Positions 2,987 through 61,225 of a stretch of DNA of 64,000 nt are shown here, piece after piece. The DNA is from Minisyncoccota bacterium (GTDB lineage Bacteria > Patescibacteriota > Minisyncoccia > Phycocordibacterales > Phycocordibacteraceae), in the NCBI GenBank assembly GCA_041660025.1, contig JBAZXD010000001.1, forward strand, positions 40,059-104,058. Direction: 5' to 3'. Within the stretch, counting starts at the first letter, position 1. Each line of letters begins with the position of its first letter. The notes beneath the pieces are model-generated. The model did not search any database, was not told the DNA's origin, and was given only the letters and a program-made list of their open reading frames with translations. The position numbers and the translations under genes are program-made.

Positions 2987-4099
2987 GTGATGGACGAGCC
3001 GAAGAAATATATCCGCACATTCGCGGGAGATATGGAGACCCTGAAAAAGGGAGGCACGCCTGATCTCGCACCGTTGCGCACTGTTCCAGCTGTACCATCC
3101 GTACCGTCCGCACAGCCGCCTGTCGCGACGCTCCCCGCACAACCGCTCCCGACGCCGCCTCCGCCTGAACCACAGAAGATCGCGGAGCCGTTCCCGAGCG
3201 TCGCGCCGAAGGAGCCCGCGGCGGCGCCGCTCAAGACCTATTCGGGCGACTTTTTCGACCGGATGAAGGCGACGAAGGCTACGACCGCCACCGTGCTCGC
3301 CGCCGAACAGGATTCGGCGCCGATTATTTCGCAACCGCCCCCAGAAAAATTTTCACGCAGCAATATTCTCTACAGCATCGCGGGCGGCATACTGCTTATT
3401 GCCGGCATAGCCGGAGCGTATGTCGCGTACACGCGCTACCTCGCCGTATCCTCTCCGATATTGCCGGTCCTCACGGTCTCGGCGCCGATATTCGTCGACG
3501 AACGCGAGCAGATTTCTGGCACGGGTACTACGCTCTTTCAGGCAATCGGACAGTTAACGACGCGTCCGCTTGCGGCCGGCGCCGTCCGACTCCTCTCTCT
3601 CGACGCTACGGCCACTACCAGCGTATTCTCAGCGCTCCAGGTGCCGGCACCCAGCGTCCTACTCCGCAACGTGGTCACCGCCGGGAGTATGGCGGGCGTC
3701 GTGTCCACGGGAGGTGGAACACAAAGCCCGTTCTTCATCCTTTCGGTCGCTTCCTTCGGGGATACCTTCGCCGGTATGTTGCAGTGGGAGCCGCTTATAT
3801 TGCGCGACCTCGCCAGACTTTTCCCGCCATATCCGGCTCCGGCGATAGCGACCACGACGAGTGCGACCACGACGCTGAAGAGCACGGGGAAAACGGCTTC
3901 CACGACGCCGCCCGCGCCCGCCGCTCGCTTCGTCGATGCGATCGTCGCTAATCACGATGTCCGCGTCTATCGCGACACGCTCGGCCGGGACATCCTGCTC
4001 TACGGCTATTGGAATCAGACGACGCTCGTTATCGCGCGCGACGTCGCCGCGTTCACCGAGATCATAGGAAGACTTGCAACTTCCCGTGCACAACTCTAG
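2987..4099 (+). CDS. hypothetical single-pass membrane protein with proline-rich N-terminal region
   Basis: 370-aa ORF. P/A-rich low-complexity stretch (PAVPSVPSAQPPVATLPAQPLPTPPPPEPQ), one TM helix (ILYSIAGGILLIAGIAGAYVAYTRYL), then a ~220-aa extracytoplasmic domain. No family recognised. Confidence 0.5.
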   Translation: MMDEPKKYIRTFAGDMETLKKGGTPDLAPLRTVPAVPSVPSAQPPVATLPAQPLPTPPPPEPQKIAEPFPSVAPKEPAAAPLKTYSGDFFDRMKATKATTATVLAAEQDSAPIISQPPPEKFSRSNILYSIAGGILLIAGIAGAYVAYTRYLAVSSPILPVLTVSAPIFVDEREQISGTGTTLFQAIGQLTTRPLAAGAVRLLSLDATATTSVFSALQVPAPSVLLRNVVTAGSMAGVVSTGGGTQSPFFILSVASFGDTFAGMLQWEPLILRDLARLFPPYPAPAIATTTSATTTLKSTGKTASTTPPAPAARFVDAIVANHDVRVYRDTLGRDILLYGYWNQTTLVIARDVAAFTEIIGRLATSRAQL

Positions 4100-4119
4100 G
4101 TGTCTGCTATTATCCCTGC

Positions 4120-4467
4120 ATGAAGACCGAACACTTCAGGAAGAAACTCTCCGCGGAGAAGGCGCGACTGGAATCAGAAATGGGAACGGTCGGTCGCCAG
4201 AATCCTGCGGTGCCCGGTGACTGGGAATCGGTCCCGTCGGAGACGGGCGTCGAATCCGACCTCGCCGACCAGGCCGACATCGTGATGAGCCGCGAGGGCA
4301 ACAGTGCTATCCTCGCCGATCTTGAAGCACGGTACGACACGGTCATCTCAGCGCTCGCGCGGCTCGAGAACGGCACGTACGGGAAGTGCGAAGTCTGCGG
4401 CAAGAAGATAGAAGAAGAGCGTCTCGAGGCCAACCCCACCGCGACGACCTGCGTCGAACATTTGTAA
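4120..4467 (+). CDS. DksA/TraR-family zinc-finger protein
   Basis: [20 protein letters not shown]...[30 protein letters not shown]: coiled-coil plus C-terminal CxxC...C zinc finger of the DksA/TraR type. ATG at 4120 lies inside the longer track ORF 4009..4467. Confidence 0.65.
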
Positions 4468-4472
4468 TACTC

Positions 4473-6053
4473 ATGCCCGCGGCGCGCTCGGAATCCGCAA
4501 CAGTCCGCCCGTCCGCTCCCTTGAAGAGAGCCGCGCCGAAAAGCGGCTACGCCAAGACGCTTGCCGCACAACCGGTCGGCTCCGGCGCGGAGATCATTAC
4601 CGTCGAGGCCGACCTCACGCGCGGTTTGCATAATTTCTCGGTCGTCGGGCTCGCCGACAAGGCGGTCGATGAGGCGCGCGATCGGGTTAGCGCCGCGATA
4701 CGCCACTCCGGTCACAAGCCACCCAAACAGCAGAACAAACGTATCGTCCTCTCGCTCTCGCCAGCGGACCTGAAGAAAGAAGGCTCGCACTACGACCTCG
4801 CGCTCGCGCTTGCTTACCTCATCGCCGCCGGCGACCTCGCGCCGCTTGAAAGCGAGATGCTGTTTGCCGGCGAGCTCGCGCTCGACGGGACTCTGCGGAG
4901 CGTGCGTGGCATACTCCCGCAAGTGCTCGCCGCCAAGCGCCGCAAGGTCAAGACGATGTTCGTCCCGCCAGGAAATGCGCGCGAGGCGCTTCTCGCGGAA
5001 GGCGTGGCGATCTATGCGCCAAAGTCGCTTGCGGAACTTTTACAGCATTTGAAAGGGGAGAAGCCGCTTCCACGCCTTCTGCGCGACCGCCGCGCGCCGG
5101 TGCCGCCGCCCGCGCTCGACCTCCAGGATGTGAAAGGGCAAGAGAGTGCGAAGCGCGCACTCGAGATCGCCGCCGCCGGTCGCCACAACATCGTCTTTTA
5201 CGGCCCGCCGGGGACAGGGAAGACGATGCTCGCTCGCGCGCTCTCCGGCATCCTCCCGCCGCTCTCCGATGACGAGATGCTCGAGGTAACAGCGATACAC
5301 TCGACCGCCGGACTGCTCAAAGACGGCGAGGCAGTCTACTGGCCGCCCCTGCGCGCGCCGCACCACTCGATATCCCACGTCGCCATCGTCGGCGGGGGCA
5401 CGTTCCCGAAGGCGGGCGAGGTAACGCTCGCGCACAAGGGTGTCCTCTTCCTCGACGAATTCCCCGAGTTCGACTCCCGCACGCTCGAAGCGCTCCGTCA
5501 GCCGCTCGAAGACCGCGTCGTAACCGTCTCGCGCGCACGGGCGAGCATTACCTTCCCGGCCGACTGTATGATCGTCGCGGCGATGAATCCCGCGGACACA
5601 CTCTCCGACGACGCGCGGGTCGCCTTTCGCGCCGCGGCGAAGCAGGCGCGCCGCATCAGCCGGCCCATCGTCGACCGCCTCGACCTCTGGATCGAAGTGC
5701 CGCTCGTTCCGCACGCGACACTTGCGAAACTGAGTACCGGAGAATCGTCGGAGAGCGTCCGCGAACGCGTCGTCGGCGCGCGAGTACGGGCGGCGAAGCG
5801 AAGCGGTAAGTCAGGCGCGACGAACGCCGCGCTCTCTGGTCGTGAACTCGACGAAAAAAGTGGATTTACCCCGGAAGCGAAGGAGACGCTTACCCAGTCT
5901 GCCGCGCGCCTCAATCTCTCGCCGCGGAGCTACCACCGCACGATGCGCGTCGCGCGCACCATCGCCGACCTCGCCGGCGTCGAAGCGGTCACTCCGGCTT
6001 TCGTGCACGAGGCTCTACAATATCGCCCCCGCGGTCTCTTCGGATTTGAATGA
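4473..6053 (+). CDS. comM: YifB/ComM-family Mg-chelatase-like AAA+ ATPase
   Basis: Lon-like N-terminal domain, Walker [28 protein letters not shown], and C-terminal Mg-chelatase domain. ATG at 4473 (MPAARSE...). Confidence 0.85.
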
Positions 6054-6186: not shown

Positions 6187-7299
6187 TTATTGGGGAGCAC
6201 AGACAGCGCCGACAGAGCAATTACGGAAAGGATTGGCCGCGCCGCGGACTTCGAAGTGGAGATGCGCTCCGGTTGAGAGACCGGTCGAGCCGACATAGCC
6301 GATAATCTGGCCGGACGCGACCGACTGTCCCGGCGAGACCGCGACGCTCCGCATGTGCGAATAGAGGGTCTGTGAACCATTACCGTGCGTGATAACGACG
6401 TAGTTGCCGTAGCCGCCATTCCAGCCGCCGCCGCCGCGCGCGACGATGACGGTCCCGTCGGCGGCGGCGCGGATCGTCGTGCCGCGCGAGGCGCCGAAGT
6501 CGACGCCGTTCCAGCCGTGAAGTCTCTGCGTGAGGACGGCGCCCGGGATGGGATTGCTGTAGTAGCCCGTCTGTGCGGAGCCACCACCACCCAAGAAAGG
6601 TTCGCGGATGGTGGATGACGGACGTGCGCTCGACGCGGGCGCGATGATCTCGCCGCCCGGGATGATGATGGTTGAACCGACCTTAAGAGGTTCCGCCGGA
6701 TCGAGACCGTTGAACTGAGCTATATCACCCGCATCGGCACTGTATTTCTTGGCGAGCGACTTGAGCGTATCGCCCTTCGCGATCACGCGCTCGACGCCCG
6801 AGACGGGCAGGATGACGAGCGTATCGCCCGGATGCACATCCCGCGTGCTCTTCAGATTGTTCGCCCACAGGATGGTATTTACCGAGACACCGAACATGTT
6901 CGAGATATCCGAGAGGGTATCGCCCGCGCGCACTACGTAGACCGAGATGCGGTCGGGTTGTACTGCACCCTCGACGTCCGCCAGCGTGCCGGAGGGGCCG
7001 CTATAGGAGACGAGCGCCGCACCGCCAGAGGTAGCGAGCGCTATGGGCGCCCCGGGGTTCGGGTTCCTGTTTATTGACGCCATCAATACCGGCGTCGAAG
7101 CGCTCGGGACGAGCGCATTGGTCGTTGCCGCCCCCGCATTCGTAGAAAAAGGCCAGAACGCACTTGCGTGGTTCGGCAAGATTGCGGCGGCACCTACGAC
7201 GGCCGCGAATCCGAGTATGAAGAATTGTTTGTTGAATGTAATGGGAAAACGAGGGTGTCGGCGGGTCTTTCTAATACAAAAATGGCTTACATAAGCCAT
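6187..7299 (-). CDS. secreted LysM-domain M23-family peptidoglycan endopeptidase
   Basis: Signal-like N-terminus. LysM motifs (YVVRAGDTLSDISNMFGVSVNTILWAN; IAKGDTLKSLAKKYSADAGDIAQFNGL). M23 catalytic motifs HxxxD...GYVGSTGLSTGAHLHFEVR. The exact start is uncertain. Confidence 0.8.
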   Translation of the reverse strand: MAYVSHFCIRKTRRHPRFPITFNKQFFILGFAAVVGAAAILPNHASAFWPFSTNAGAATTNALVPSASTPVLMASINRNPNPGAPIALATSGGAALVSYSGPSGTLADVEGAVQPDRISVYVVRAGDTLSDISNMFGVSVNTILWANNLKSTRDVHPGDTLVILPVSGVERVIAKGDTLKSLAKKYSADAGDIAQFNGLDPAEPLKVGSTIIIPGGEIIAPASSARPSSTIREPFLGGGGSAQTGYYSNPIPGAVLTQRLHGWNGVDFGASRGTTIRAAADGTVIVARGGGGWNGGYGNYVVITHGNGSQTLYSHMRSVAVSPGQSVASGQIIGYVGSTGLSTGAHLHFEVRGAANPFRNCSVGAVCAPQ

Positions 7300-7358: not shown

Positions 7359-9341
7359 ATGAAGCCTCTAAACGCCTGTGGAGAACGGTTTTTAGGGTAT
7401 ATTTGGAAAGTGAAATACCTCGACGGATTAAATGAGGCGCAAAAACGGGCTGTCCTTGCAAAGGACGGCCCGATCTCGGTCCTCGCGGGCGCCGGAAGCG
7501 GGAAAACGCGGGTGCTCACCACGCGGATATACCATCTGATACGCGAAGGCGTCGCGGCGGAGCAGATCCTCGCCGTTACCTTCACCAACAAGGCCGCCCG
7601 TGAGATGCGCGAACGGGTGCGGGGACAGCTCGGCGCGGACCCTTCGATGGACTCAGGACAGGCGGGGCCGCTCCCGTTCATCGCCACCTTCCACGGTCTT
7701 GGCCGCGAGCTCCTCGAGAGCTACGGGAAGGCGATTGGCATCTCGCGCTACTTCAGCGTCTACGACCGCGACGATTCTGAAAAGGCGATCGGCGCGGCGC
7801 TTAAGGCGCTCGATGTCGGCGCGAAGGAGCTTTCGCCGCGCGCGGTCCTCGGCCGCATCTCGCGCGAGAAGGGTGCCGGGATGCGCGCGAATGAATTTTA
7901 TGAGAAGCACGGCCGCGGGAGCTTCGGCGCGCGCGTCGTCGCGGAGGCGTGGCTTCGCTACGAGAAAACACTTGCGGCAGAGAAATCGCTCGACTTCGAC
8001 GACCTCATCGCTCTGCCCGTGCGGCTCCTCGAGGAGCACGCCGACATCCGCGCACTCGCGCAGGACCGCTGGCGCTACATCCACATCGACGAATATCAGG
8101 ACACCAATGCGCTCCAGGGACGGCTCGCGAATATGCTCGCCTCGAAACATCGGAACCTCTTCGTCGTCGGCGACATCGACCAGACTATCTACACGTGGCG
8201 CGGCGCAACGATTGAGAACCTGCTTGAATTCGACAAAACGTATCCGGATGCGCAAACGATTATTCTCGAACAGAACTATCGTTCGACGAAAAATCTCGTC
8301 GACGCCGCGAACGCGGTTATCGAGAAGAACAAGAATCGTAAGGAGAAGTATTCGACGACGAAAAAGGCAACCGGCGAGCCGATCCTTGTGCATATGGCGC
8401 GAAGCGCGGACGACGAGGCGCGCTGGATCGCGCTCCGGATACGGCAATTAATGAGCGCGGGCCAGAAACCGGAGGGGATCGCTATACTCTTCCGCACCAA
8501 CTTTCAATCCCGCGCGCTCGAGGAGGGGCTCCTGCGCGCGGGCGTGCCGTACAAGCTGCTCGGCACGCGCTTCTTCGCGCGCAAGGAGGTGAAGGATGCG
8601 CTCGCCTGGATGCGTCTTGCGATGGACTCCTCGCGCGAGGTCGACAAGCTGCGCGCGGCGGCTGCGCCGCCGCGCGGGCTCGGTAAGGTGACGCTCGCGA
8701 AGCTCGCGGCGGGCCAGCGTTCATTGCTTCGCGCCGGCGACCTTACGAAGGTCGAACAATTCGAACAGATCGTCGCAGAGCTCGCGGGCGCCTCGCTCGT
8801 CCTCTCGCCCTCCGCATTCGTAAGACTCGTCATCGAGAAGAGTGGTATACGCCGCGCGCTCTACGACGAGGGGAGCGCGGAGGACCGCGAGCGCTTCGAG
8901 AACGTCGAAGAGCTCGCCTCGGTCGCCGCACGGCACGATGCGATGCCGGGCAGAGAGGGAATCGCCGCATTTCTCGCCGAATCCGCCTTGGCGAGCGATC
9001 AGGACGAGATGGATCAGGGCGAAAAGAAAGGCGTCACGCTTATGACGGTTCATTCGGCGAAGGGACTCGAGTTCGATACGGTATTCGTGAGCGGTATGGA
9101 AGAAGGACTCTTCCCGCATCAGGGGATGGGGAATGAGGGAGATCGTGATGAAGAGGAGGAGCGACGGCTCTTCTACGTCGCAATGACGCGCGCGAAAGAG
9201 CGCCTCATCCTCACGCTCGCGCGCGTTCGCAAGATTTACGGCAGTGACTTCGCGTCGGAGCCCTCGTCATTTCTCGCGGATATCGACGGAGCGCTGATGC
9301 ACTATGACGAGACCGAAGGAGAAGAGGTTATCGAGGCCTAA
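7359..9341 (+). CDS. UvrD/PcrA/Rep-family ATP-dependent DNA helicase
   Basis: Walker A AGAGSGKTRVLT, helicase motifs TFHGLG, DEYQDTN, VGDIDQTIY, C-terminal VTLMTVHSAKGLEFDTVFV. GAGGGGGG RBS 10 nt before the ATG at 7359. Confidence 0.85.
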   Translation: MKPLNACGERFLGYIWKVKYLDGLNEAQKRAVLAKDGPISVLAGAGSGKTRVLTTRIYHLIREGVAAEQILAVTFTNKAAREMRERVRGQLGADPSMDSGQAGPLPFIATFHGLGRELLESYGKAIGISRYFSVYDRDDSEKAIGAALKALDVGAKELSPRAVLGRISREKGAGMRANEFYEKHGRGSFGARVVAEAWLRYEKTLAAEKSLDFDDLIALPVRLLEEHADIRALAQDRWRYIHIDEYQDTNALQGRLANMLASKHRNLFVVGDIDQTIYTWRGATIENLLEFDKTYPDAQTIILEQNYRSTKNLVDAANAVIEKNKNRKEKYSTTKKATGEPILVHMARSADDEARWIALRIRQLMSAGQKPEGIAILFRTNFQSRALEEGLLRAGVPYKLLGTRFFARKEVKDALAWMRLAMDSSREVDKLRAAAAPPRGLGKVTLAKLAAGQRSLLRAGDLTKVEQFEQIVAELAGASLVLSPSAFVRLVIEKSGIRRALYDEGSAEDRERFENVEELASVAARHDAMPGREGIAAFLAESALASDQDEMDQGEKKGVTLMTVHSAKGLEFDTVFVSGMEEGLFPHQGMGNEGDRDEEEERRLFYVAMTRAKERLILTLARVRKIYGSDFASEPSSFLADIDGALMHYDETEGEEVIEA

Positions 9342-9676
9342 GTAGTCTCTAGTTCCGGTTCCGTGACACCGAAGTGGCTTTTGAACGACCGTTCGATGAC
9401 CTCCCGTTCTTTGGGTTTGAGGTCATGGCGACCTTCGTAGTGCGTGTCTAAGAATTTCATAGCCATATCGATGTGGTGGCTTTTCATCCCTAATTTCAAA
9501 TCCTCCTTTTTTTCCACGTGAGCGATAGCGGCTTTCAGAGCTGCATCGACGCGCGCCCTGCCGTGTTCTTGTAGACCGGCTGCATTTTGCAGGTGAGTAA
9601 ATAGTTCGCGCGGTTGTCCTCGTTCAAGATGCTCGTGCGTAAGGTTGCCGTAGTTCATATAACCAGTATTGTACAC
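9338..9676 (-). CDS. hypothetical protein (112 aa)
   Basis: Complete ORF, His/Glu-rich, no family recognised. GC is visibly lower than the neighbouring genes. Its stop overlaps the helicase stop by 4 nt (convergent). Confidence 0.4.
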   Translation of the reverse strand: MYNTGYMNYGNLTHEHLERGQPRELFTHLQNAAGLQEHGRARVDAALKAAIAHVEKKEDLKLGMKSHHIDMAMKFLDTHYEGRHDLKPKEREVIERSFKSHFGVTEPELETT

Positions 9677-9678
9677 CT

Positions 9679-10428
9679 ATGCGCGCTAAGAAAAGTCTCG
9701 GGCAGAATTTCCTGATGCACGCGCGCATCGCGGAGCGTATTGCGCTCGCCGCTCATCTCGCGCCGAGCACGGTCGTGTTCGAGATCGGCCCCGGGACCGG
9801 CATGCTCACGCGGGAACTCCTGAAACTGGCAGGGAAAGTAGTTGCGCTTGAAGCGGACTATGAACTCATCGAGAAATTACGAATTGATTTTTCGGATGAG
9901 ATCGCGAATGGCCGGCTCGAACTCATCCACGGTGACATACGCACATTCAACATCTCTTCGCTCCCGAAGGGATATGCGCTCGTCGCGAATATTCCGTACT
10001 ATCTGACGGGCGAGATTTTCCGGATGTTCCTTGCGGCGCCGAACCAGCCGAGCTCGATGACGCTTTTGGTACAGAAAGAGGTTGCGGCGCGTATCGCGCG
10101 TGCGAAGAAAGAGAGCATTCTTTCGCTCTCGGTAAAGGCGTACGGCACCCCGGCATATGAGTTCACGGTCCCGCGCGGGGCGTTTTGCCCCGCGCCCAAG
10201 GTCGATTCCGCCGTGCTCGCCGTCCGCGACATTTCGCGGAAGGATTTTCCCTCACCAGAGGAAGAAGAGCGATTTTTCGCGCTTCTGCACGCGGGGTTCG
10301 CACACAAACGTAAATTCGTGCGAAAAAATCTGGCCGATGCCGGACTGCCTGCGGGAACTATTCCTGAAAAAGCTCGCGCCGAAGACCTGCCGCTCTCGGT
10401 ATGGCTCGCCCTAAGCAGGGTCGAATGA
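9679..10428 (+). CDS. rsmA: 16S rRNA (adenine1518/1519-N6)-dimethyltransferase
   Basis: LGQNFL, SAM motif VFEIGPGTGMLT, VANIPYYLTGEIF. Confidence 0.85.
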   Translation: MRAKKSLGQNFLMHARIAERIALAAHLAPSTVVFEIGPGTGMLTRELLKLAGKVVALEADYELIEKLRIDFSDEIANGRLELIHGDIRTFNISSLPKGYALVANIPYYLTGEIFRMFLAAPNQPSSMTLLVQKEVAARIARAKKESILSLSVKAYGTPAYEFTVPRGAFCPAPKVDSAVLAVRDISRKDFPSPEEEERFFALLHAGFAHKRKFVRKNLADAGLPAGTIPEKARAEDLPLSVWLALSRVE

Positions 10429-10433
10429 TACGA

Positions 10434-11408
10434 CTATACCGGAGAAGAGCCGACCACCGGTGTGATCAGACCCTCTGAGTAGATGTAGTACGGTCCGATC
10501 CAGCATGCGCCGGGACCGGGAGTGTATTCTCCAAGAAGCCAGCTCGTCGCCGGTATATTGTACGAGAGAAATGCCTGGGATCCCGACATATAAGAGACAA
10601 GGGTTACAAAAGTAGGAGGAAGCGGTGAGAGCATAATGTTCCAGACACCGCCATTGCAGGGGAGAGGGAACAGAAGCGCACCGCCGAAGGGAACGCCGGT
10701 CCCGGCGCGTGCACGACCGGGCATAAAGACGGTATCAAACGCGCGTTCTACCATCGCCAAAGTTCTACCGATAAGAGAGGTATCCTGCACTGCTTGGTTG
10801 GGTGTGTCTTGAACCATTTTCAGAAAAGTGGCGTGCAGGTCGGTCGTGGTAGCAATCACTTTCATAACCTGTTCCTTCACTGCGGCGATCTCAGTGGCAG
10901 AGGCTCCCTGCTTTGTCGCGACGCTGTCGAGAGCGGCTAAGAATTTGTCGACATTCTTCAGATTCGGATTTTGAGAAGCCATTGCCGGAGCGGGAGTCTC
11001 GGCGGGTACAGTCTGCGTATCGACACGTGGAGCGCTTGTTTGCGACAAGGTAGAAATCGTATTGAGTTTCGCTCTCGTATACAGTCCTACATAGCCATTA
11101 CCCTGGGATAGGCCGGCGGGTGTCAAGACTTCGCTTGCGTACTTCGCTTGGAACCGTACAACGGCTCTTTTCGTGAGCGCTCCAAAGTAGCTCGTTTCAT
11201 TTCCCGGAGAACCTGAACCGGTGCTCGCAATGCGCGTATCCGGGTCGCGGTTCAGGATACGCTGAAGCGCGATAACCTGCGGGCCCGAAGAACCGAGCGA
11301 GAGATTATTCATAAACGCATTCGGGGCGCCCGCCTGTGCGTTCGCGAATGTTCCGTACGGGAACACGATACTAAAAGCCGCGATGAGAGAGAGAAACGAA
11401 GCTCGCAT
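10434..11408 (-). CDS. secreted protein with putative peptidoglycan-binding (PG_binding_1-like) domain
   Basis: Signal peptide (MRASFLSLIAAFSIVFPYGTFANAQA). GPQVIALQRILNRDP...YFGALTKRAVVRFQAKY resembles PF01471. The C-terminal half is unassigned. Confidence 0.55.
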   Translation of the reverse strand: MRASFLSLIAAFSIVFPYGTFANAQAGAPNAFMNNLSLGSSGPQVIALQRILNRDPDTRIASTGSGSPGNETSYFGALTKRAVVRFQAKYASEVLTPAGLSQGNGYVGLYTRAKLNTISTLSQTSAPRVDTQTVPAETPAPAMASQNPNLKNVDKFLAALDSVATKQGASATEIAAVKEQVMKVIATTTDLHATFLKMVQDTPNQAVQDTSLIGRTLAMVERAFDTVFMPGRARAGTGVPFGGALLFPLPCNGGVWNIMLSPLPPTFVTLVSYMSGSQAFLSYNIPATSWLLGEYTPGPGACWIGPYYIYSEGLITPVVGSSPV

Positions 11409-11476: not shown

Positions 11477-12535
11477 GTGCTGGGTATACTTCATATGCAT
11501 ACTATGGGCAGAATTCTCGAAAACTGGCGGGTTCTTATCGCGGCTCTCCTTGCAATGGGGCTTATCGTTGGTTCGTTTATGCTCGCGCGCGGCATCGAAT
11601 CGCCCAGGAGCGCGCAAGCGTCGGCCGAGACCGCGCTCCTCCAAGCGATCGCATCGAAGGATACGGACGGCGACGGACTTCCCGACTGGGAAGAAGCGCT
11701 CTACGGGACATCGTCGAGCACCGCCGATACATTCAAGCTCGGTATGACCGACGGCGAGGCGGTCGCGCGCGGTCTTATCGTGCCGAAGGCGATTTCCGAC
11801 ATCGCAGTGAAGACTTCCGCTCCGGCAGATGCCGACGCGGACGGTCTTCCCCCGCCTGCCGCCGAGGGGACGCTCACTGCCGCATTCGCACAACACTTCT
11901 TCACTCTCTACCTCGCGGCGAAAGAGGCGAACGGCGGCGCGAATCTCTCTGAAAGCGGCATGGCGAGCATTGCGAACGAGGCCCTGAGCTCTCTCTCCTC
12001 CGCCATTACCGCCGCGCCCGACTTCAAAGCCGCAAAGGACCTAAAGGTCTCCGGTTCGGGCCCTGAAGCCCTTAAAGCGTTCGCGGCCGCGGCCGAAGCG
12101 GTGCTGCGGAAGAATACGACCAGCGCGACGAAGAATGAGGTTTTGTACTTAGAGGACGCGGTCCAAAAGAATGACGCTAGGGCGTTGTCGTACATCGCCG
12201 GAATCGCGAAAGGGTATCGGGAGTCTGCCGTCGGCCTTTCTATGCTCGCCGTCCCGCAAGAGCTTGTCGCGGACGATCTCGCGCTCATTAATGCGATGGT
12301 CCGCATAAGCGAGATCATTACCGACTTCGCGCGCGTGAATGACGACCCGCTCGCGGCGATGCTCGCCCTCGGGCAATACCCGGCGGCCGTGCAGTCTCTC
12401 GGAGAGGCTTTTATACGCGTCGGCGCGCAATATAGAGACGCGGGTATCTCCCTCTCTGCGGGTACGCCCGGGGCGGCATTCGTGAATCTCATTAGCGACC
12501 TGGCACAAGAACAGGCTGCCGCAAAAAAGCCATGA
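11477..12535 (+). CDS. hypothetical N-terminally membrane-anchored protein (first gene of the envelope operon)
   Basis: TM anchor LIAALLAMGLIVGSFMLA. DTDGDGLPDWEE calcium-binding-like motif. Ala-rich extracytoplasmic domain. Stop overlaps the next start (ATGA at 12532). An alternative start is at 11504. Confidence 0.5.
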   Translation: MLGILHMHTMGRILENWRVLIAALLAMGLIVGSFMLARGIESPRSAQASAETALLQAIASKDTDGDGLPDWEEALYGTSSSTADTFKLGMTDGEAVARGLIVPKAISDIAVKTSAPADADADGLPPPAAEGTLTAAFAQHFFTLYLAAKEANGGANLSESGMASIANEALSSLSSAITAAPDFKAAKDLKVSGSGPEALKAFAAAAEAVLRKNTTSATKNEVLYLEDAVQKNDARALSYIAGIAKGYRESAVGLSMLAVPQELVADDLALINAMVRISEIITDFARVNDDPLAAMLALGQYPAAVQSLGEAFIRVGAQYRDAGISLSAGTPGAAFVNLISDLAQEQAAAKKP

Positions 12536-14262
12536 AATCGCGCTTCATTTCTCCACTGCTCTCGGCACTTCTCGTCGTATCGCTTCTTGCGCCATCGCTC
12601 TTCTTCGTAGCACCACAAGAAGTGCATGCCCAGTCTATAGGCGTTCCAACGGACGACTGGGTGGTTCGGATCAAGGAAACGCTCAACCTGGTATCGACCT
12701 ACACGAACACTGCCGCGAATGTCGCGATGCAGATCAACGCGTACGTGCTCCAGCCGCTCGCCTTCGCGCTCTCGGGGGATCTGCTGAAGATGATCACCGC
12801 CGGCGTCATCTCCTTCGTCATCGGCAAGGCGAACGGCACCGGCATCCCGCAGTTCGTAGTGGACGTGCAGAAATCGCTCCAGACGGTCGGTGACGCACGC
12901 GCTCTTACGTTCCTTGATCAGTTCGGGCGGAACTCCAATTCGCCCTTCGCCTCTTCAATAGCATCGTCCTTGCGCAACGATTACCTCTCCAAGACGAGTC
13001 TCGCCGGATTCTGGGCCGCCAATATGAATACGCTCGCGCGCTCGACGCCCTCGTATCGGCCGGGCTACCTCGCCGGGAACTGGTCGCAGGGCGGCGTGCG
13101 GGCGTGGTTCGCGCTCACGACACAGGTGCAGAACAACCCGTACACGTTCTATCAGAATTCGCAGGAACGGCTCGGCACTATGATTGGCCCCGGCATCGGC
13201 GGCGCCACCGGCGCGCGTGTCGCGGAGCTCAATTGGGGGCAGGGTTTCACCTCGTGGTGCGGAGCGACCGACACGGGGGGTAGTGACGGAACGGAGATGG
13301 AGTCTGAGGCAGGCGTGAATCCGGGAGACCCGTGTACTGACAAAGACGGGAACCCGGGCTCTATCAAGACGCCCGGCTCGGTCATCGTGGCGAGCCTTAA
13401 TAAGGCGCTCGGTAGTCAGACGGATTCGATACTTCGGATGGGGAATGTCGGCCCCGAGATCAATAACATCCTGAGGAACATCGGGACCGTTATGCAGACG
13501 GTGAACTTCGCGACGCAGATACTCGGCGGCTCGGGCTCGGGCGGCCTCTTCGGCGTGAATGCCACCTCTGGCACGAATCCGACTTCTCGGCTTATGCAGT
13601 ACCAGAACACGCCCGGGTACCTAGGCGTCACTCAGTCTTCGGTGTTACAGAACGCGGCGACGCTCCCGGTAGTGAGTTCTGATATGTCGGGCCGTCTCAC
13701 TCAATACGAATCGTCGTGGAGCACTATCAGCTCGGCGGCGAACGCCGCGTCGACGACCGTCGCGAGCCTCGCGAATTTCTGTATTGCAGAGCAGAAAGTC
13801 GCGCCGTCGGTATTCAACAATGATGAGGCAGGCTTAGCGGCTTTCTTAAGCGCGAGCACCGCCCAGGCGAATACCGCGCGTTCCGTGCTCACGACGACGA
13901 TCGCACCAGTGCTCGCTCAGGCTTCAGCTGCCGCCACAACAATTGCTACGGCGCGCGCGATGGTGCAAAGAGTCCAAAGCGGTCAGAATTCGACCTCTGG
14001 AACGGCGAGTGCCGCATATCTCGCCGATCTGCAGACGCTGCAAACTATGCCGCCCTCGGACGCGGACATCTCGAATGCTCTGCAAGATGCACAAATTGCC
14101 GGCGTGGCGACCGCTATTCCGGCAGGTTCCCTCACGGTCTCGGGCGGAACGATCGTCGGCAGGATGAGCCTGCTCAGCACGAATGCCGAGGCGCTCAAGG
14201 CTTCGGTCTGTACTCCCGTCGCGTCTGTGAGAGGAAACAACAACAGCGACAATGGCGATTAA
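12532..14262 (+). CDS. hypothetical secreted protein (576 aa)
   Basis: Cleavable-looking signal peptide (MKSRFISPLLSALLVVSLLAPSLFFVAPQEVHAQ). Ser/Thr/Gly/Asn-rich, no family recognised. Overlaps the next gene by 11 nt. Confidence 0.5.
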   Translation: MKSRFISPLLSALLVVSLLAPSLFFVAPQEVHAQSIGVPTDDWVVRIKETLNLVSTYTNTAANVAMQINAYVLQPLAFALSGDLLKMITAGVISFVIGKANGTGIPQFVVDVQKSLQTVGDARALTFLDQFGRNSNSPFASSIASSLRNDYLSKTSLAGFWAANMNTLARSTPSYRPGYLAGNWSQGGVRAWFALTTQVQNNPYTFYQNSQERLGTMIGPGIGGATGARVAELNWGQGFTSWCGATDTGGSDGTEMESEAGVNPGDPCTDKDGNPGSIKTPGSVIVASLNKALGSQTDSILRMGNVGPEINNILRNIGTVMQTVNFATQILGGSGSGGLFGVNATSGTNPTSRLMQYQNTPGYLGVTQSSVLQNAATLPVVSSDMSGRLTQYESSWSTISSAANAASTTVASLANFCIAEQKVAPSVFNNDEAGLAAFLSASTAQANTARSVLTTTIAPVLAQASAAATTIATARAMVQRVQSGQNSTSGTASAAYLADLQTLQTMPPSDADISNALQDAQIAGVATAIPAGSLTVSGGTIVGRMSLLSTNAEALKASVCTPVASVRGNNNSDNGD

Positions 14263-16300
14263 TATGCGGCGATTCCTCCTCACCTCCTTCGCAGTCCTCG
14301 CGCTCGTCGTGGGCGCGGCGCCCGCCACGCATGCTCAATACGACTCTTCTCAAAACATGGAGGCAGCGTTGGATCAGACAGCAGCCACGGCAGCAAATTC
14401 TGTCTCCGACCCTGCCGCCGCGAAGGCAGCGAACGACTACAAGCCGGAGAGCACCGACTCCGCCTACAACACCATCATGATTAAGATCATGACTCTCTTC
14501 GCGTGGCTCGTCGGTGTTGCGATGATCACTCTCAACTACGCGGCATACTACACCGTCGTCACGATGGGGACCTATGTGAACGATCTCTCCGCCATCGGCG
14601 TTACCTGGAGCATCCTCCGCGACATCGGCAACATATTTCTCATATTCGGCTTCCTCGCGATCGGCATCACCACTATCCTGAACGTTGACTGGTACGGCGG
14701 CGGCAAGAAGATGCTCCCGATGATGTTCGTCGCCGCCATATTCCTCAATTTCTCCCTCTTCATAACCGAGGCGGTCATCGACACGGGCAATCTCTTCGCG
14801 ACCCAGTTCTATACGCAGATAAACGACGGCAATCTCCCGACAGCGGCGACCTTGGTGGATGAAGGCATCTCGAGCAAGATAATGTCCCAGCTCGGACTCA
14901 CGACGATCTATGGTCAAGCTCAGAATAATGAAAGGGCGAAGGACATATTTAAAGGCGGTAATCCGTGGATCATCGGTTTTATGGGCATCATACTTTTCAT
15001 CATCCTGGCATTCGTGTTGTTCTCGCTCGCATTCGTACTCATTGCGCGTTTTGTCATTCTCATCTTCCTTATTATCCTCGCGCCCGTCGGCTTCGCGGGT
15101 CTCGCCGTGCCTCAGCTCGCGAGCGTCGCGAAGAAGTGGTGGGACAAACTCTTCGAGCAGACCATCACCGCGCCGGTCCTGCTCCTGATGCTCTACATCG
15201 CGCTTACCATCATTACCGATGTGCGATTTCTTACCGGTTTTGGTTCCGATCAGGGCGCGGATTGGCTCGGGACCATACGAGGCGACATAGCCGGATTCGC
15301 ACCGGTCCTGCTCTCCTTCCTCGTCGCGATGGGGCTCCTCCTCGCGGTCGTCATTTTCGCCAAAAATCTCTCCGCCTTCGGCGCTTCTGGAGCGACAAAA
15401 CTTGCAAGTAAGCTTTCTGGAGTGTCTGTCGCCGCAGCCGCGCCTGGATGGGTCGGGCGCAATACATTTGGCTTGGCTGGCAATTATGCCGCGAAAAAAT
15501 TGCGTGACACTGGGTTTGGCCGCTCATTTGTCGGTCGAGGCATTGCTGGGACGCTTGAGAAACGAGTGGCGGGTGCAAGTTTTGATATTCGCAATACAGA
15601 CTTTGGCAAATCGGCATCCAAAGTCGGTCTCAATCTTGGTAAAGGTCAGACGGGTGGCTACAAGGCGGATCTTGAGGCTCGCGTAAAATCTTATGAAGCG
15701 GCATCGGCTGGGATCACTGGCGGCGCGAAGGAGAAAGAAGAAAAGCAGGCGGCTAGGCAGGCTAAAGCAACTATAGATGCGACACGCGAGGCACGCGATA
15801 AGGCAGAGGCTGAACATAGGCGTATTGAGCCTGCTCTGGCACAAGAAAATGCAAGACAAAAAGCAGAAGTTGAGCGGCTTGAGAAAGAAAAAGAACGCTT
15901 CGGGGCCGGGACTTTTGCTGCAAATGAGATCGACAAAAAACTCATTCCGGCCCGCGAAAGTCTTGTCAAGAGTAATGAGGCACTTAAGGCCGCAAATGAT
16001 AAGTTAACTGATGCTAAAACCGCTCTTGCAACCGCAATGAATGATGAGGCCGCAGCAAGAAAGAATGTTGGGACAGCTAAGAAAGAAGCTCAAAGCGAGT
16101 ATGCCGATAGACTTGAGAGTATATGGGGCAGAATCCCTCTCGCCGGCACCGCAGCTACAGCCGCGGCGCCAAGAGTTCGTAGCAATATCGGTAAAACAGC
16201 GGACCAGCGTGCAATAGAAGGACTCCTCAAGGAAATAAAAGACAAGGCGGGAGCGAGCGGCGGAGGAGAGAAGAAGGAGGAGAAAGAAGAGGCGAAATAA
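14252..16300 (+). CDS. polytopic membrane protein with VirB6/TrbL-like topology and long C-terminal coiled-coil
   Basis: Signal peptide, about 7 hydrophobic helices between aa ~75 and 380 (e.g. WIIGFMGIILFIILAFVLFSLAFVLIARFVILIFLIILAPVGFAGLAV), then a Gly-rich linker and a K/E/A-rich coiled-coil tail. The topology resembles TrbL/VirB6 proteins; the family assignment is an inference. Confidence 0.5.
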   Translation: MAINMRRFLLTSFAVLALVVGAAPATHAQYDSSQNMEAALDQTAATAANSVSDPAAAKAANDYKPESTDSAYNTIMIKIMTLFAWLVGVAMITLNYAAYYTVVTMGTYVNDLSAIGVTWSILRDIGNIFLIFGFLAIGITTILNVDWYGGGKKMLPMMFVAAIFLNFSLFITEAVIDTGNLFATQFYTQINDGNLPTAATLVDEGISSKIMSQLGLTTIYGQAQNNERAKDIFKGGNPWIIGFMGIILFIILAFVLFSLAFVLIARFVILIFLIILAPVGFAGLAVPQLASVAKKWWDKLFEQTITAPVLLLMLYIALTIITDVRFLTGFGSDQGADWLGTIRGDIAGFAPVLLSFLVAMGLLLAVVIFAKNLSAFGASGATKLASKLSGVSVAAAAPGWVGRNTFGLAGNYAAKKLRDTGFGRSFVGRGIAGTLEKRVAGASFDIRNTDFGKSASKVGLNLGKGQTGGYKADLEARVKSYEAASAGITGGAKEKEEKQAARQAKATIDATREARDKAEAEHRRIEPALAQENARQKAEVERLEKEKERFGAGTFAANEIDKKLIPARESLVKSNEALKAANDKLTDAKTALATAMNDEAAARKNVGTAKKEAQSEYADRLESIWGRIPLAGTAATAAAPRVRSNIGKTADQRAIEGLLKEIKDKAGASGGGEKKEEKEEAK

Positions 16301-16307
16301 TTGCAAT

Positions 16308-17177
16308 ATGGACACAAATCAAGAACCAACATTTGATCAAGATTTATCAACAATAGTCTCGCAATTGCCGCCGCCTATAAAGACGTTTTTCGTGAGTGGG
16401 AAAGTGGAGATTATTGCGAAGAATTTGATGCAGAAAAATCAGCTTCATATTGATCAGGGTGCGATCGTGGAACGTGAGATCATTTTACTCCTGCTCGGAC
16501 TTAAAACCCCTACTGAGTTTACTCAGGCGCTTGCGGAGGAAGCGCGTCTTGACCCGCAGGTCACGAGCGGCATCGTGCAGGATATAAATGCGCAGATATT
16601 TATGCCATTGCGGGAGGAGATGCGGAAGGGAATGTCTGGTGCGGCAGAGCCGGCGAAGACTGTGGCGCCGAAGGCTGCGCAACCCGCGAGCCATTTCCAT
16701 CTGGAGAACAAGTTGCCCGCCCGCTCCGCTCCGCCAGTGCCTCCTCGTCCCGCCTCCAACATCGCGCCTCTACCGCCGAAGACGGTGTTGCCTCGCAGTG
16801 GGGGTCTGCCTGCCACACGACTGCCAGTGTTGAAGCCGATAGACACGAGTCGACTGCTCGAAGATCATGAGGAGCCGCACATTGAGTTTCCTGCATTGCC
16901 TACACCTATAAGCATGACAAAGGCGCCGCGACCTCTGCAAAGAGCCGCAGAAACCCCGCTCCAACAGGCCCTGCGAACCGTTCTGCCTCGCCCCGCCGGA
17001 GTTTCTAACGCAGGAAGTCCGCCACCGAATCTCCCAGGAGCTCTCTCGCCGCGCATTCCTCCCAAGGTCGAACCCTCCATTTCACAGACCCAACCGAAAC
17101 CTGCCCAGCCGGTTGTTCCTCCCCCCGCTCCCGCCAGGCCGTATTCCTCCGACCCCTACCGCGAGCCGATCGAGTGA
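16308..17177 (+). CDS. hypothetical protein with proline-rich C-terminal half
   Basis: Starts 8 nt after the previous stop. C-terminal PPVPPRPASNIAPLPPKTVLPRSGGLP...PKPAQPVVPPPAPARP low complexity. Confidence 0.45.
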   Translation: MDTNQEPTFDQDLSTIVSQLPPPIKTFFVSGKVEIIAKNLMQKNQLHIDQGAIVEREIILLLLGLKTPTEFTQALAEEARLDPQVTSGIVQDINAQIFMPLREEMRKGMSGAAEPAKTVAPKAAQPASHFHLENKLPARSAPPVPPRPASNIAPLPPKTVLPRSGGLPATRLPVLKPIDTSRLLEDHEEPHIEFPALPTPISMTKAPRPLQRAAETPLQQALRTVLPRPAGVSNAGSPPPNLPGALSPRIPPKVEPSISQTQPKPAQPVVPPPAPARPYSSDPYREPIE

Positions 17178-17229
17178 GTTTCGTTGCGTTAGTTGCGTTC
17201 TTGCCTACTATTATATATAGTACTTCTGT

Positions 17230-17249
17230 CCCGCGAACGCGGGTTTTCT
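17230..17249 (+). terminator. hairpin plus T-tract ending the envelope operon, 7 nt upstream of rpsL
   Basis: cccgc-gaac-gcggg followed by ttttct. Confidence 0.4.
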
Positions 17250-17255
17250 AAATAA

Positions 17256-17669
17256 ATGGCCACCATCAATCAGCTGTCCAAGAAGGGACGCAAGAACAAA
17301 TCGCGCAAGACGAGCGTGCTCGCTCTTGCGCGTGGTTTTAATGCACTCAAGAACCGTCCGACTTTCTATCCTTCTCCCTTCAAACGAGGTGTGTGTACTA
17401 AAGTGACCACCAAGACCCCGCGTAAGCCGAACTCCGCCATCCGTAAGATCGCCCGCGTTCGCCTCACGAACGGGATGGAGGTAACGGCCTACATCCCAGG
17501 CGAAGGGCACAACCTCCAGGAACACTCGGTCGTCATGCTCCGTGGTGGTCGCGTGAAGGACATCGGCGTCCAGTACACCATCGTGCGTGGCAAGCTCGAC
17601 ACCGCCGGCCTCGAGAAGCGCCGCACCGCCCGCTCGCGCTACGGCGCGAAGCGCCCGTCCGCTAAATAA
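17256..17669 (+). CDS. rpsL: 30S ribosomal protein S12
   Basis: [12 protein letters not shown]...[45 protein letters not shown]. Carries an internal insertion compared with the canonical ~124-aa protein. Confidence 0.9.
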
Positions 17670-59440: not shown

Positions 59441-61225
59441 ATGAACTTTCTCGAATTACTGGTTGACAAAGGGCTCATTTCCAAAAGCGATCGCGCCGCG
59501 GTCGAAGCAGAACTCGCCAAAGGACGTCCGTTCGCCGACGTGCTCGCCGAGCGCGGCATTTCGCTTGAGAGCGCGCTCGCCGAGGCCGCAAAGCCGTATG
59601 GCATCCCTTCCCGCGTGCTCGGCGACCCTCCCGCCGCCCAAGAGGTGTTCGCCTATGTGCCGATCGATTCTGCTCGCCATTACGGATTCGTGCCGCTCGA
59701 TATCAAGGAGGGCGCGCTCGAGGTCGGCATCATCGACCCCGACAACATCGAGGCGCTCGACGCCCTGCAATTCATCTCCGGGAAGATCGGGATGCCATAC
59801 AAGATATTTCTCATCACGAAACAGGATTTCGACCGGGTGATCGACGCCTACCAGAATCTCTCGGGCGAGATCGGCAAGGCGCTTTCCGAATACGAAACGA
59901 CGACGACGCCGGTCGCGGAAGAGCGTCACGCCGGTAGCCCATCCGCCGTCGAGGAAACCTCGGTGCTGGATGAAGAAACGCTCGGTCTTACCGGCCCGCA
60001 CGAGACGCTCAAGGAGGATGCGCCGGTGACAAAGATCGTCTCGACGATATTGCGATACGCCATCGAGCAGCATTCTTCCGACGTTCATATCGAACCTTCA
60101 TCCGAGAGGACGCGCGTCCGCTTCCGTATGGACGGCGACCTGCACACCTCGCTTGAATTACCGGCGAAGGTGCATGAAGCGGTCGTCGCGCGCATCAAGA
60201 TCCTCGCGAAATTGCGCCTCGACGAGAAGCGCAAGCCGCAGGACGGACGCTTCTCGGCGAGCGTCGAGAAGCGGAGCATCGATTTCCGCGTTTCCACCTT
60301 CCCGACGGAATACGGCGAGAAGGTCGTGATGCGCATCCTCGACCAGTCGGATGCGACCGCGACGCTCGAATCCGTCGGGCTCTCGGCCGCCCAGCTCGTC
60401 GAGGTCCGCGAGATGATGAAGGTCCCGTACGGGATCATTCTCATCGCGGGACCGACCGGCTCGGGTAAGTCGACAACGCTTTTCGCGATGCTCTCCGAGA
60501 CCGACCGCGAAACGGAGAACGTCGTGTCGCTCGAGGACCCGGTCGAGTATGAGATCCCCGGCGTCGCGCAGAGCCAGATGCGTCCCGAGATCGGTTACAC
60601 GTTCGCGAGCGGTCTCCGCTCCGTCCTGCGCCAGGACCCGGATATCATTATGGTCGGCGAGATCCGCGACAAGGAGACCGCGGTACTCGCGGTGCAGGCC
60701 GCGCTCACCGGCCACCTCGTATTCTCCACCATCCATACCAACACGGCGGTCGGCGCGATCCCGCGCCTCATCGATATGGGGGTCGACCCATTCCTCATCG
60801 CGCCGACACTCGTTTCCGTCATCGGTCAGCGGCTCGTCCGGAAGCTCTGTCCCGGGGCAGGGAAGCCGTTCCCGATCAAGGACAGCATCAAGGAATTCCT
60901 CGATCGGCAATTCGCCGACCTGCCCGAAGAACATCGCCGCGCCCTGCCACCGTTCAAGAATTTTTATCACGCGAGCCCGACGGAGGATTGTCCGAACGGC
61001 ACGCGCGGCCGTACCGGCGTCTTCGAAATACTGAAAATGGATAAGACGCTCGAGCAGGTCGTGCTCAAGGAGCCGGTCGAAGAGAAGGTCTTTGCCACCG
61101 CGCGCGCGAACGGTATGCTCACGATGCGTGAGGACGCCATTATGAAAGCGCTTGCGGGCGAGATCCCCTTCGAAGAGATCAACACGCTCGGCGGCGAACT
61201 TTTCCCCGAGGGCGCCCCTGCTTGA
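59441..61225 (+). CDS. pilB: type IV pilus assembly ATPase PilB (GspE family)
   Basis: N-terminal GspII-like domains, Walker A GPTGSGKST, Asp box, Walker B DPDIIMVGEIRD, His box LVFSTIHTN. Confidence 0.9.
   Translation: MNFLELLVDKGLISKSDRAAVEAELAKGRPFADVLAERGISLESALAEAAKPYGIPSRVLGDPPAAQEVFAYVPIDSARHYGFVPLDIKEGALEVGIIDPDNIEALDALQFISGKIGMPYKIFLITKQDFDRVIDAYQNLSGEIGKALSEYETTTTPVAEERHAGSPSAVEETSVLDEETLGLTGPHETLKEDAPVTKIVSTILRYAIEQHSSDVHIEPSSERTRVRFRMDGDLHTSLELPAKVHEAVVARIKILAKLRLDEKRKPQDGRFSASVEKRSIDFRVSTFPTEYGEKVVMRILDQSDATATLESVGLSAAQLVEVREMMKVPYGIILIAGPTGSGKSTTLFAMLSETDRETENVVSLEDPVEYEIPGVAQSQMRPEIGYTFASGLRSVLRQDPDIIMVGEIRDKETAVLAVQAALTGHLVFSTIHTNTAVGAIPRLIDMGVDPFLIAPTLVSVIGQRLVRKLCPGAGKPFPIKDSIKEFLDRQFADLPEEHRRALPPFKNFYHASPTEDCPNGTRGRTGVFEILKMDKTLEQVVLKEPVEEKVFATARANGMLTMREDAIMKALAGEIPFEEINTLGGELFPEGAPA

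Follow-up and report, generated by a model that had tools for sequence, protein, structure and literature searches.

In the present study, four tightly packed forward-strand genes, designated g1 to g4 in 5'->3' order, were analysed in a stretch of 64,000 nucleotides (the window) of contig JBAZXD010000001.1 from a Minisyncoccota bacterium, an ultrasmall, Kaiserbacteria-like organism. The operon formed by these genes appears to be the VirB6 half, comprising membrane and surface parts, of the chromosomal type IV secretion system (T4SS) known from Patescibacteria and not a separate apparatus, with a probability that we estimate at about 0.75. This reading is based chiefly on two findings: g4 runs into the genes for VirB3, a TraC-like protein, VirB4 and a VirB2-like pilin in some relatives, and the VirB4 modules of relatives in which the two parts are separated carry no VirB6 gene. 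The genes and the relevant parts of their products are as follows (aa, amino acid residues).

11477..12535, forward strand: g1, 352 aa as listed, with a GTG start; exported or membrane-anchored protein
11660..11710, forward strand: bacterial TSP3 calcium-binding repeat in g1, DTDGDGLPDWEEALYGT, aa 62-78, Pfam PF18884
12532..14262, forward strand: g2, 576 aa; secreted protein with a signal peptide, tentative candidate for a VirB5-like partner of g3
14252..16300, forward strand: g3, 682 aa; extended VirB6/TrbL-type polytopic membrane protein
14453..15370, forward strand: VirB6-like hydrophobic core of g3, aa 68-373, with a Pfam TrbL match over aa 151-365
15371..16252, forward strand: tail of g3, comprising a basic linker rich in Gly (aa 374-468) and, after it, a long helical region rich in Lys, Glu and Ala (K/E/A; aa 469-667)
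16308..17177, forward strand: g4, 289 aa; cytoplasmic by prediction, with neither a transmembrane (TM) segment nor a signal peptide

A first-pass annotation of the window had placed four tightly packed open reading frames (ORFs) at these positions, and both the ORF listing and the orthologues across 80 loci agree with it. The ATGA overlap of 4 nt between g1 and g2 and the 11-nt overlap between g2 and g3 were also given correctly, but the gap between g3 and g4 is 7 nt and not 8. The remaining ORFs that overlap g1-g4 on either strand are without support, and we take them as spurious in DNA of about 58% GC.

Two arrangements of the operon were observed in relatives, which were sampled by a GTDB scan with one genome per species that gave 80 loci with a g3 relative (Kaiserbacteria/Paceibacterota). 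First, a tblastn search with R388 TrwK/VirB4 gave a match just downstream of g4 in four of the 80 loci, which are among the few lacking rpsL after g4. The contiguous loci comprise four related species (L060, L063, L073 and L077) and a metagenome contig (L087). The string in L063 reads g1, g2, g3, a g4-like gene, PrgI/VirB3 (E 2.5e-11), a 262-aa protein, VirB4 (P-loop_TraG, 6.6e-27, and AAA_10), two genes without assignment, T4SS_pilin/TrbC (7e-8), one further gene without assignment and, on the other strand, yidC, and this order is repeated in the other four as far as each extends. The gaps in L063 are about 12-17 nt, and VirB3 starts within about 20 nt of g4 across the contiguous loci. Second, in the split type, to which the window belongs, g4 is followed by rpsL. 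In all three split-type relatives checked, namely the 993-kb chromosome OY969413.1 (L051) and contigs of 159 kb (L011) and 176 kb (L065), VirB4 was found on the contig that carries g3, at a distance of 48-68 kb and in the opposite orientation. The module in these relatives contains VirB3, a TraC-like protein, VirB4, proteins of about 300 and 335 aa, a pilin and a protein of about 400 aa; it adjoins yidC-rnpA-(rpmH)-dnaA-dnaN, and no TrbL/VirB6-like gene was observed in it. By extension, a VirB4 module would also be expected in the genome from which the window derives.

Several further features of the relatives' VirB4 module were observed. The VirB4 proteins, when used as a query, are 85-95% identical across the clade, compared with 27-60% for g1-g4 in the same genomes (P0241-P0360; loci L083, L085 and L086); within what is apparently one machine, the rates of the envelope parts and of the cytoplasmic motor differ strikingly. 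In L086, two additional genes separate the TraC-like gene from VirB4 (9158-9989), namely a DUF5680 gene and one of the 23S-rRNA-intervening-sequence type, and a MazEF toxin-antitoxin pair is located just upstream of the module. The VirB2-like pilin is about 290-325 aa in length (L083 13726-14607; L063 17767-18747), far longer than the usual VirB2, with an N-terminal part as normal for pilins (a signal peptide and two TM helices) followed by a Cys/Thr-rich extension of about 180 aa.

The four genes are real, fast-evolving and co-inherited. The first-pass annotation had proposed checking the four-gene order across relatives, and this order was kept in the 80 species-level genomes, where tblastn revealed orthologues of g1 in 71, g2 in 76, g3 in 80 and g4 in 69 loci, with missing orthologues mostly at contig ends. 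The surrounding order is likewise constant, i.e. an M23/LysM peptidase gene on the reverse strand, uvrD, ksgA, a peptidoglycan-binding gene in 22 loci, and then g1, g2, g3 and g4. The junctions are tight, with the ATGA overlap (-4) of g1 and g2 in most loci, mostly -4 to +7 nt between g2 and g3, and +2 to +32 nt between g3 and g4. Median identities to the window are 58% for g1 (over 71 of the 80 loci), 43% for g2, 46% for g3 and 37% for g4, compared with about 91% for S12, S7 and EF-G, which indicates the rapid evolution of the module.

This conservation also bears on the origin of the operon. VirB6-type genes are typical of conjugative elements, and g1-g4 might be the remnant of an integrated element or plasmid. 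However, in 80 species the module occupies a fixed chromosomal site, with ksgA on one side and rpsL (or VirB3) on the other, its GC content resembles that of the flanks, and the window has a single tRNA, distant from the module at 56 kb. No integrase was seen nearby, no match to the TrwB/VirD4 coupling protein was obtained in the window or the relatives' loci, and no relaxase appeared in Pfam scans of the large window ORFs or the L063 cluster proteins, which were general scans and not searches aimed at relaxases. Moreover, a survey of 3,035 Patescibacteria genomes by Quinonero-Coronel et al. 2025 (PMC12102498) reported relaxases in no more than 103 of them. A mobile remnant is therefore extremely improbable, and we rejected it because the site is fixed.

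The identity of g3 as a VirB6/TrbL-like protein is supported by its sequence, its fold and its gene context in relatives. Its signal peptide has a predicted cleavage site after THA (aa 28), and about seven hydrophobic helices were identified between aa 68 and 373 by hydropathy and in an AlphaFold model, which gives g3 the polytopic character of VirB6/TrbL proteins (at least 4-6 hydrophobic helices; review PMC12857230). This core is the most conserved part of the protein, with 47-76% identity among cluster representatives. The Pfam family TrbL (PF04610) gives a sub-threshold match to it at E 1.3e-4 over nearly the full profile (positions 25-214 of 215), and when 34 orthologues were scanned singly, TrbL was matched in five and TrbL_4 in two, with a best value of 7e-6. 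Precomputed PF04610, PF19590 or PF19597 assignments are also present on some database orthologues, and the NCBIfam family for the CD3337/EF1877 mobilome membrane protein matched weakly at E 4.6e-4. In the AlphaFold model, for which 34 orthologues served as input, aa 68-373 fold into a bundle of long hydrophobic helices, which is followed by a linker and very long helices. The top three Foldseek matches were all TrwI chains (probability 0.97-0.99, TM-score 0.42), and two different structure-comparison programs both placed TrwI first; as modelled, g3 thus has a VirB6-type fold.

The g3 linker (95 residues) contains 14 Lys and Arg, 4 Asp and Glu, and 18 Gly residues, and the positive-inside rule fits the whole series of a signal peptide, an acidic N-terminus outside, about seven helices, a basic cytoplasmic linker and K/E/A helices; by this rule, the tail is predicted to be cytoplasmic. 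To judge from sequence comparison, the wider g3 family is large, since a phmmer search with the core gave 815 cluster representatives at E<=1e-30 and 6,131 at E<=1e-10; only close relatives were among the matches listed, which do not build a bridge to canonical TrbL proteins. The product of g3 is 100% identical to the hypothetical protein WC814_00320 of a 'Candidatus Paceibacterota bacterium' (387-kb contig), and the close relatives are all from Kaiserbacteria, Paceibacterota or Patescibacteria metagenome genomes. When PDB sequences were searched with the complete g3 alignment, the tail produced coiled-coil noise and nothing else was obtained, and the core gave no tblastn match in 72,556 plasmids.

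Several results weigh against the assignment of the operon to the T4SS and must be considered together. No gene for VirB4, VirD4, VirB3 or pilin is present in the 64-kb window; g1, g2 and g4 gave no significant match to a known T4SS component in Pfam, NCBIfam, hhalign comparisons or PDB sequences; and the module, which adjoins rpsL stably in about 70 species, could have its own regulation. In the survey table (PMC12102498), VirB4 is listed as present in five of the six genomes shared with the 80-locus sample, and one operon-bearing genome, a draft assembly (L075), is listed without it. Concerning g3, the TrbL score of 22.3 bits is below the Pfam cut-off of 25.9, the AlphaFold model is of moderate quality (predicted local distance difference test, pLDDT, 70.7), the Foldseek E-values for TrwI are only about 0.1, the core profile matched no PDB sequence, and hhalign of the g3 alignments against TrwI gave a probability below 1%, which is uninformative because the template is a single sequence. 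All family assignments at the locus are accordingly based on sub-threshold sequence scores and a moderate-quality model.

Two other readings draw on these results. One is that g1-g4 constitute an autonomous, lineage-specific envelope or host-attachment apparatus, independent of VirB4, with a membrane protein derived from VirB6. The absence of an ATPase from the window, the conserved position of the module next to rpsL, the unlikeness of g1, g2 and g4 to known T4SS parts, and their much faster evolution than that of VirB4 are all compatible with such an apparatus; despite these points, g1-g4 form one tight gene string with VirB3, VirB4 and pilin in five loci, the split-type VirB4 modules lack VirB6, although this component is regarded as conserved in all T4SSs (PMC12857230), and VirB4 shares the replicon of g3 in every split-type relative checked. 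We consider it unlikely. The first-pass annotation had stated that no VirB4/VirD4-type ATPase occurs in the window, which is correct, and had gone on to a system that is not a canonical T4SS but perhaps a lineage-specific apparatus, which is unsupported given the VirB4 module in relatives. The other reading regards g3 as an unrelated polytopic transporter or membrane protein, with the likeness to VirB6 arising by chance between helical membrane bundles. Every sequence score below its curated cut-off, the modest Foldseek values and the empty hhalign comparison with TrwI would suit it, but Pfam and NCBIfam profiles for VirB6-type T4SS proteins both match g3, TrwI ranks first in both structure-comparison programs, no transporter family matched g3, and g3 stands at the VirB6 position upstream of VirB3-VirB4 in the contiguous loci, in an order that we take to be that of pCF10. 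A chance resemblance is thus very improbable, and the assignment of the operon to the T4SS is preferred.

The three partners of g3 are less readily placed. The product of g2 begins with a signal peptide (aa 1-33, VHA|Q), is rich in Ser, Thr, Gly and Asn, and contains four conserved Cys residues; in its model, a C-terminal helical bundle (aa 380-560, nt 13669-14211) is confident and the rest is unreliable. The sole family recurring among about 100 orthologues is DUF4141, found at the mature N-terminus of three of them (P0238, 5e-7, and two of 65 others), with a best score of 29.4 against a cut-off of 30 bits and a span of only about 50 residues; it is absent from g2 of the window. About 15 orthologues open, by eye, with a [IV]P?V[FI]D..N motif that resembles 'GIPVFDG' in TrwJ/VirB5, and a stricter regular expression retained 5 of 70 orthologues from the loci and 5 of 36 from databases; at this position, g2 of the window reads only 'GVPTDDW'. 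Because of the DUF4141 matches, the N-terminal motif and the position of g2 just upstream of the VirB6 gene, g2 may tentatively be viewed as a VirB5-like cap, a role that we rate at somewhat less than even chances. Neither hhalign against TrwJ/VirB5 nor a PDB sequence search with the g2 profile gave a match.

For g1, the true start is probably the ATG at 11504, since the orthologue consensus begins MGxILxNWR. A hydrophobic segment (aa 19-38) is followed by a possible signal-peptidase site, AQA|S (aa 46-49), the TSP3 repeat and a conserved Ala/Leu-rich domain; because the AQA|S site is conserved, g1 may be cleaved rather than anchored. The motif DTDGDGLPDWEE represents a bacterial TSP3 (thrombospondin type 3) repeat of the DxDxDGxxDxxE type. 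PF18884 matches g1 of the window at E 4.6e-4 (20.4 bits; cut-off 25) and 40 of 63 orthologues (best 1.1e-7), and in the orthologue alignment the acidic residues are invariant, as are D62, D66, G67, L68 and W71. No known relative of the Ala/Leu-rich domain was found in Pfam, by a PDB sequence profile search or by hhalign against TrwG/VirB8. The link between g1 and VirB8 that had been suggested earlier consequently received no support from these comparisons, which concern sequence only.

The product of g4 consists of a conserved N-terminal domain (aa 1-105), a variable Pro-rich linker and an acidic motif, LLEDHEEPHIE (nt 16854-16886), and ends in an invariant YSxDPYREPI (nt 17142-17174). No relatives were found in Pfam, in a scan of all g4 orthologues, or among PDB sequences by profile search. 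Because g4 stands between g3 (VirB6) and VirB3 in the contiguous loci, a role as a cytoplasmic adaptor is plausible.

Much of the earlier description of these proteins is borne out by the present results. The signal peptide, seven helices and Gly-rich and K/E/A tail reported for g3 were all seen, with the cytoplasmic site of the tail a prediction; the proposed VirB6/TrbL likeness agrees with the Pfam match, the fold match to TrwI and the gene context in relatives; the calcium-binding-like motif of g1 is now identified by PF18884 as a TSP3 repeat; and g2 was rightly described as a secreted protein rich in Ser, Thr, Gly and Asn, as its signal peptide indicates. The statement that none of the four was recognisable by sequence is too strong in view of g3, with its near full-length sub-threshold TrbL match, and of g1, with its TSP3 repeat.

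Comparison with known systems places the operon more precisely. The T4SS of Patescibacteria is described as chromosomal and relaxase-less, like that of single-membrane bacteria, with Southlakia epibionticum SEML1_0006-0019 as an example, and includes VirB3/PrgI, TrsD/TraC-like, VirB4, VirB6 and VirB2-like pilin components (Wang et al. 2023, PMC10633639; survey, PMC12102498). The VirB4 module of the relatives, with its TraC-like protein between VirB3 and VirB4, has exactly this make-up. KsgA, dnaA, dnaN and rnpA are common neighbours of virB4 in the survey, which covered a 20-gene neighbourhood of virB4 and reported VirB6 in only 480 cases across the 3,035 genomes, with extreme divergence suspected, and VirB8 in almost none (PMC12102498). 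Two differences were observed herein: the VirB6 gene is accompanied by three conserved partners that are not named in the portions of the published accounts available to us (PMC10633639, PMC12102498), and in most of this clade it is located 48-68 kb from virB4, beyond the surveyed 20-gene range.

In the R388 stalk of TrwI/VirB6 and TrwJ/VirB5 (PDB 7o3v, 8rt9 and 8rtd), TrwI is the best structural match of the g3 core, a secreted-protein gene likewise stands just upstream of the VirB6 gene (with one small lipoprotein gene between them in R388), and some g2 orthologues share the VirB5-type mature N-terminus. However, g3 and TrwI are only 11-19% identical in sequence, g3 is twice as long with its 300-aa tail, g2 is 576 aa compared with 226 aa and has no significant VirB5 match, and the present host has no outer membrane and therefore no VirB7/9/10 core. 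The extended VirB6 proteins of Gram-positive MPF-FA systems (MPF, mating-pair formation; 700-900 aa, CD3337/EF1877) resemble g3 in size and hydrophobic core, to which they add hydrophilic or unstructured domains (PMC12857230), although at 19 bits g3 falls well short of the cut-off of 120 set for that family. By its VirB4, the patescibacterial system is assigned to the MPF-FATA class; VirB6 proteins of this class measure about 300 aa (PMC12857230 among the sources), which makes an extended VirB6 in such a system unusual.

The VirB6, VirB3, VirB4 order of the contiguous relatives is also that of pCF10, where we take the order to be prgF-prgG-prgH(VirB6)-prgI(VirB3)-prgJ(VirB4); the differences are the presence of g4 between VirB6 and VirB3 and the much larger size of g1 and g2 than of PrgF and PrgG, with no homology shown. 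In Bacteroides conjugative transposons, the DUF4141 gene adjoins traJ, whose product is presumably the VirB6 homologue, and the DUF4141 proteins share with three g2 orthologues a short N-terminal domain after the signal peptide; they differ in that the match of about 50 residues is under the cut-off and is absent from g2 of the window.

Herein, we propose the following model of the locus and its machine. First, a single cluster of the form ksgA|g1-g4|VirB3-VirB4-pilin|yidC-dnaA would have been split by an inversion of roughly 50-70 kb in the clade of the window, which would have left g4 beside rpsL while the VirB3-VirB4-pilin genes stayed beside yidC-rnpA-dnaA. Second, g3 would be the VirB6 subunit. 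The R388 model has a pentamer of VirB6 that receives a pentamer of VirB5 and serves as the base for the addition of VirB2 pilins (review PMC12857230); by analogy with R388 TrwI, g3 might likewise assemble as a pentamer within the membrane and above it, giving the VirB2-like pilins a platform for assembly and the substrate a passage. The basic linker and coiled-coil tail may extend on the cytoplasmic side towards the ATPase complex of VirB3, the TraC-like protein and VirB4, and perhaps towards g4, which would act as a cytoplasmic proline-rich adaptor. Third, g2, exported by Sec, might sit on g3 as the VirB5-like cap or tip for which the pilus-assembly model calls (PMC12857230), and g1 might be a calcium-binding scaffold, exported or anchored, that helps passage through the wall zone, with the syntenic M23/LysM and peptidoglycan-binding proteins opening the peptidoglycan. 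Because no relaxase or coupling protein was seen nearby, the system may serve for protein export or pilus formation rather than for DNA conjugation, as published accounts also suggest.

The neighbouring features of the window are the following.

6187..7299, reverse strand: M23 peptidase with two LysM domains (Pfam), syntenic in 52 of 80 loci
9679..10428, forward strand: ksgA/rsmA, conserved left neighbour of the module, found in 67 of 80 loci
10434..11408, reverse strand: secreted PG_binding_1 (peptidoglycan-binding) protein (Pfam), divergent from g1 and at the site in 22 of 80 loci
17200..17252, forward strand: right boundary of the module, a promoter-like TTGCCT...TATA box followed by a GC hairpin and T-run; the rpsL start codon is at 17256

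The gene ksgA marks one shared chromosomal site in both the split and the contiguous arrangements, and a UvrD-type helicase gene (uvrD) is located between it and the M23/LysM peptidase. VirB1-like proteins with M23/LysM domains have been described in Patescibacteria (PMC12102498), and this peptidase is a possible VirB1-type wall-opening enzyme, as inferred from such likeness. The PG_binding_1 gene is a variable insert between ksgA and g1, its product has an unassigned C-terminal domain, and it is possibly an accessory cell-wall factor; both proteins had been named in the first-pass annotation, and their Pfam domains are present. Predicted signal-peptidase sites of one type (a small residue, any residue, Ala, then Gln) occur in three secreted proteins of the locus, as VHA|Q in g2 (nt 12622-12633), THA|Q in g3 (nt 14327-14338) and ANA|Q at the N-terminus of the 10434-11408 product.

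Downstream of the module are rpsL, rpsG, fusA, tuf and then a large ribosomal protein cluster. The promoter-like TTGCxT...TATAxT box and the hairpin upstream of rpsL are kept in 55 of 69 loci, and the hairpin occurs in two variants in which the pairing is kept (GACCC/GGGTC or CCCGC/GCGGG); no Rfam family matched it. This element may act on rpsL, as a leader or attenuator, or may terminate transcription of the g1-g4 operon. A functional tie between the module and the ribosomal operon was considered and rejected, since a conserved promoter-like element and a leader hairpin belong to rpsL itself. At the far end of the window, a PilB-type T2SSE ATPase with an MshEN domain (E 3e-116; 59441-61225, forward strand) indicates a type IV pilus locus, the type IV pilus being the second envelope machine, besides the T4SS, that has been connected with an epibiotic lifestyle in Patescibacteria. 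In addition, a 370-aa ORF (2987-4099, forward strand), which is Pro-rich in its N-terminal part, has one TM segment and gave no match in Pfam, adjoins a TrmB-type regulator, a 152-aa ORF that is DksA-like by eye (4009-4467) and a ComM/Mg-chelatase-like ATPase (4386-6053).

Most likely, the locus thus represents a known machine with three unstudied partner proteins and not a new apparatus. What is new herein is, first, an extended and divergent VirB6 in a system with a VirB4 of the class in which VirB6 proteins are normally about 300 aa long; second, three conserved uncharacterised proteins that always accompany this VirB6; and third, a split architecture that places the VirB6 module beyond the surveyed virB4 neighbourhood. 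A literature search found no paper naming both Kaiserbacteria and TrbL. Neighbourhood-based surveys would miss the VirB6 of this large Paceibacteria clade, which is usually far from virB4, and as a general lesson, an ATPase missing from a window is no evidence against a T4SS. It is unlikely that in most Kaiserbacteria the VirB6 module has turned into a functionally independent, VirB4-free envelope conduit or attachment device, consisting of an extended VirB6 and three proteins without known relatives and situated immediately upstream of an rpsL operon with a conserved promoter-like element of its own; in that case, a T4SS component would have been put to a new use. A milder reading has more in its favour, in which g1, g2 and g4 may account for structural components of the Patescibacteria T4SS that have so far escaped recognition, i.e. 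a wall-spanning scaffold, a VirB5-like tip and a cytoplasmic adaptor to the ATPase, and a VirB5-like cap would be relevant if the VirB2-like pilins really form a pilus. Few machines have been demonstrated to be indispensable to a cultivated patescibacterium in its epibiotic life, and the T4SS is among them (Wang et al. 2023, PMC10633639). The composition of this system in Patescibacteria is still poorly known, and the g1-g4 locus supplies candidates for its missing parts.

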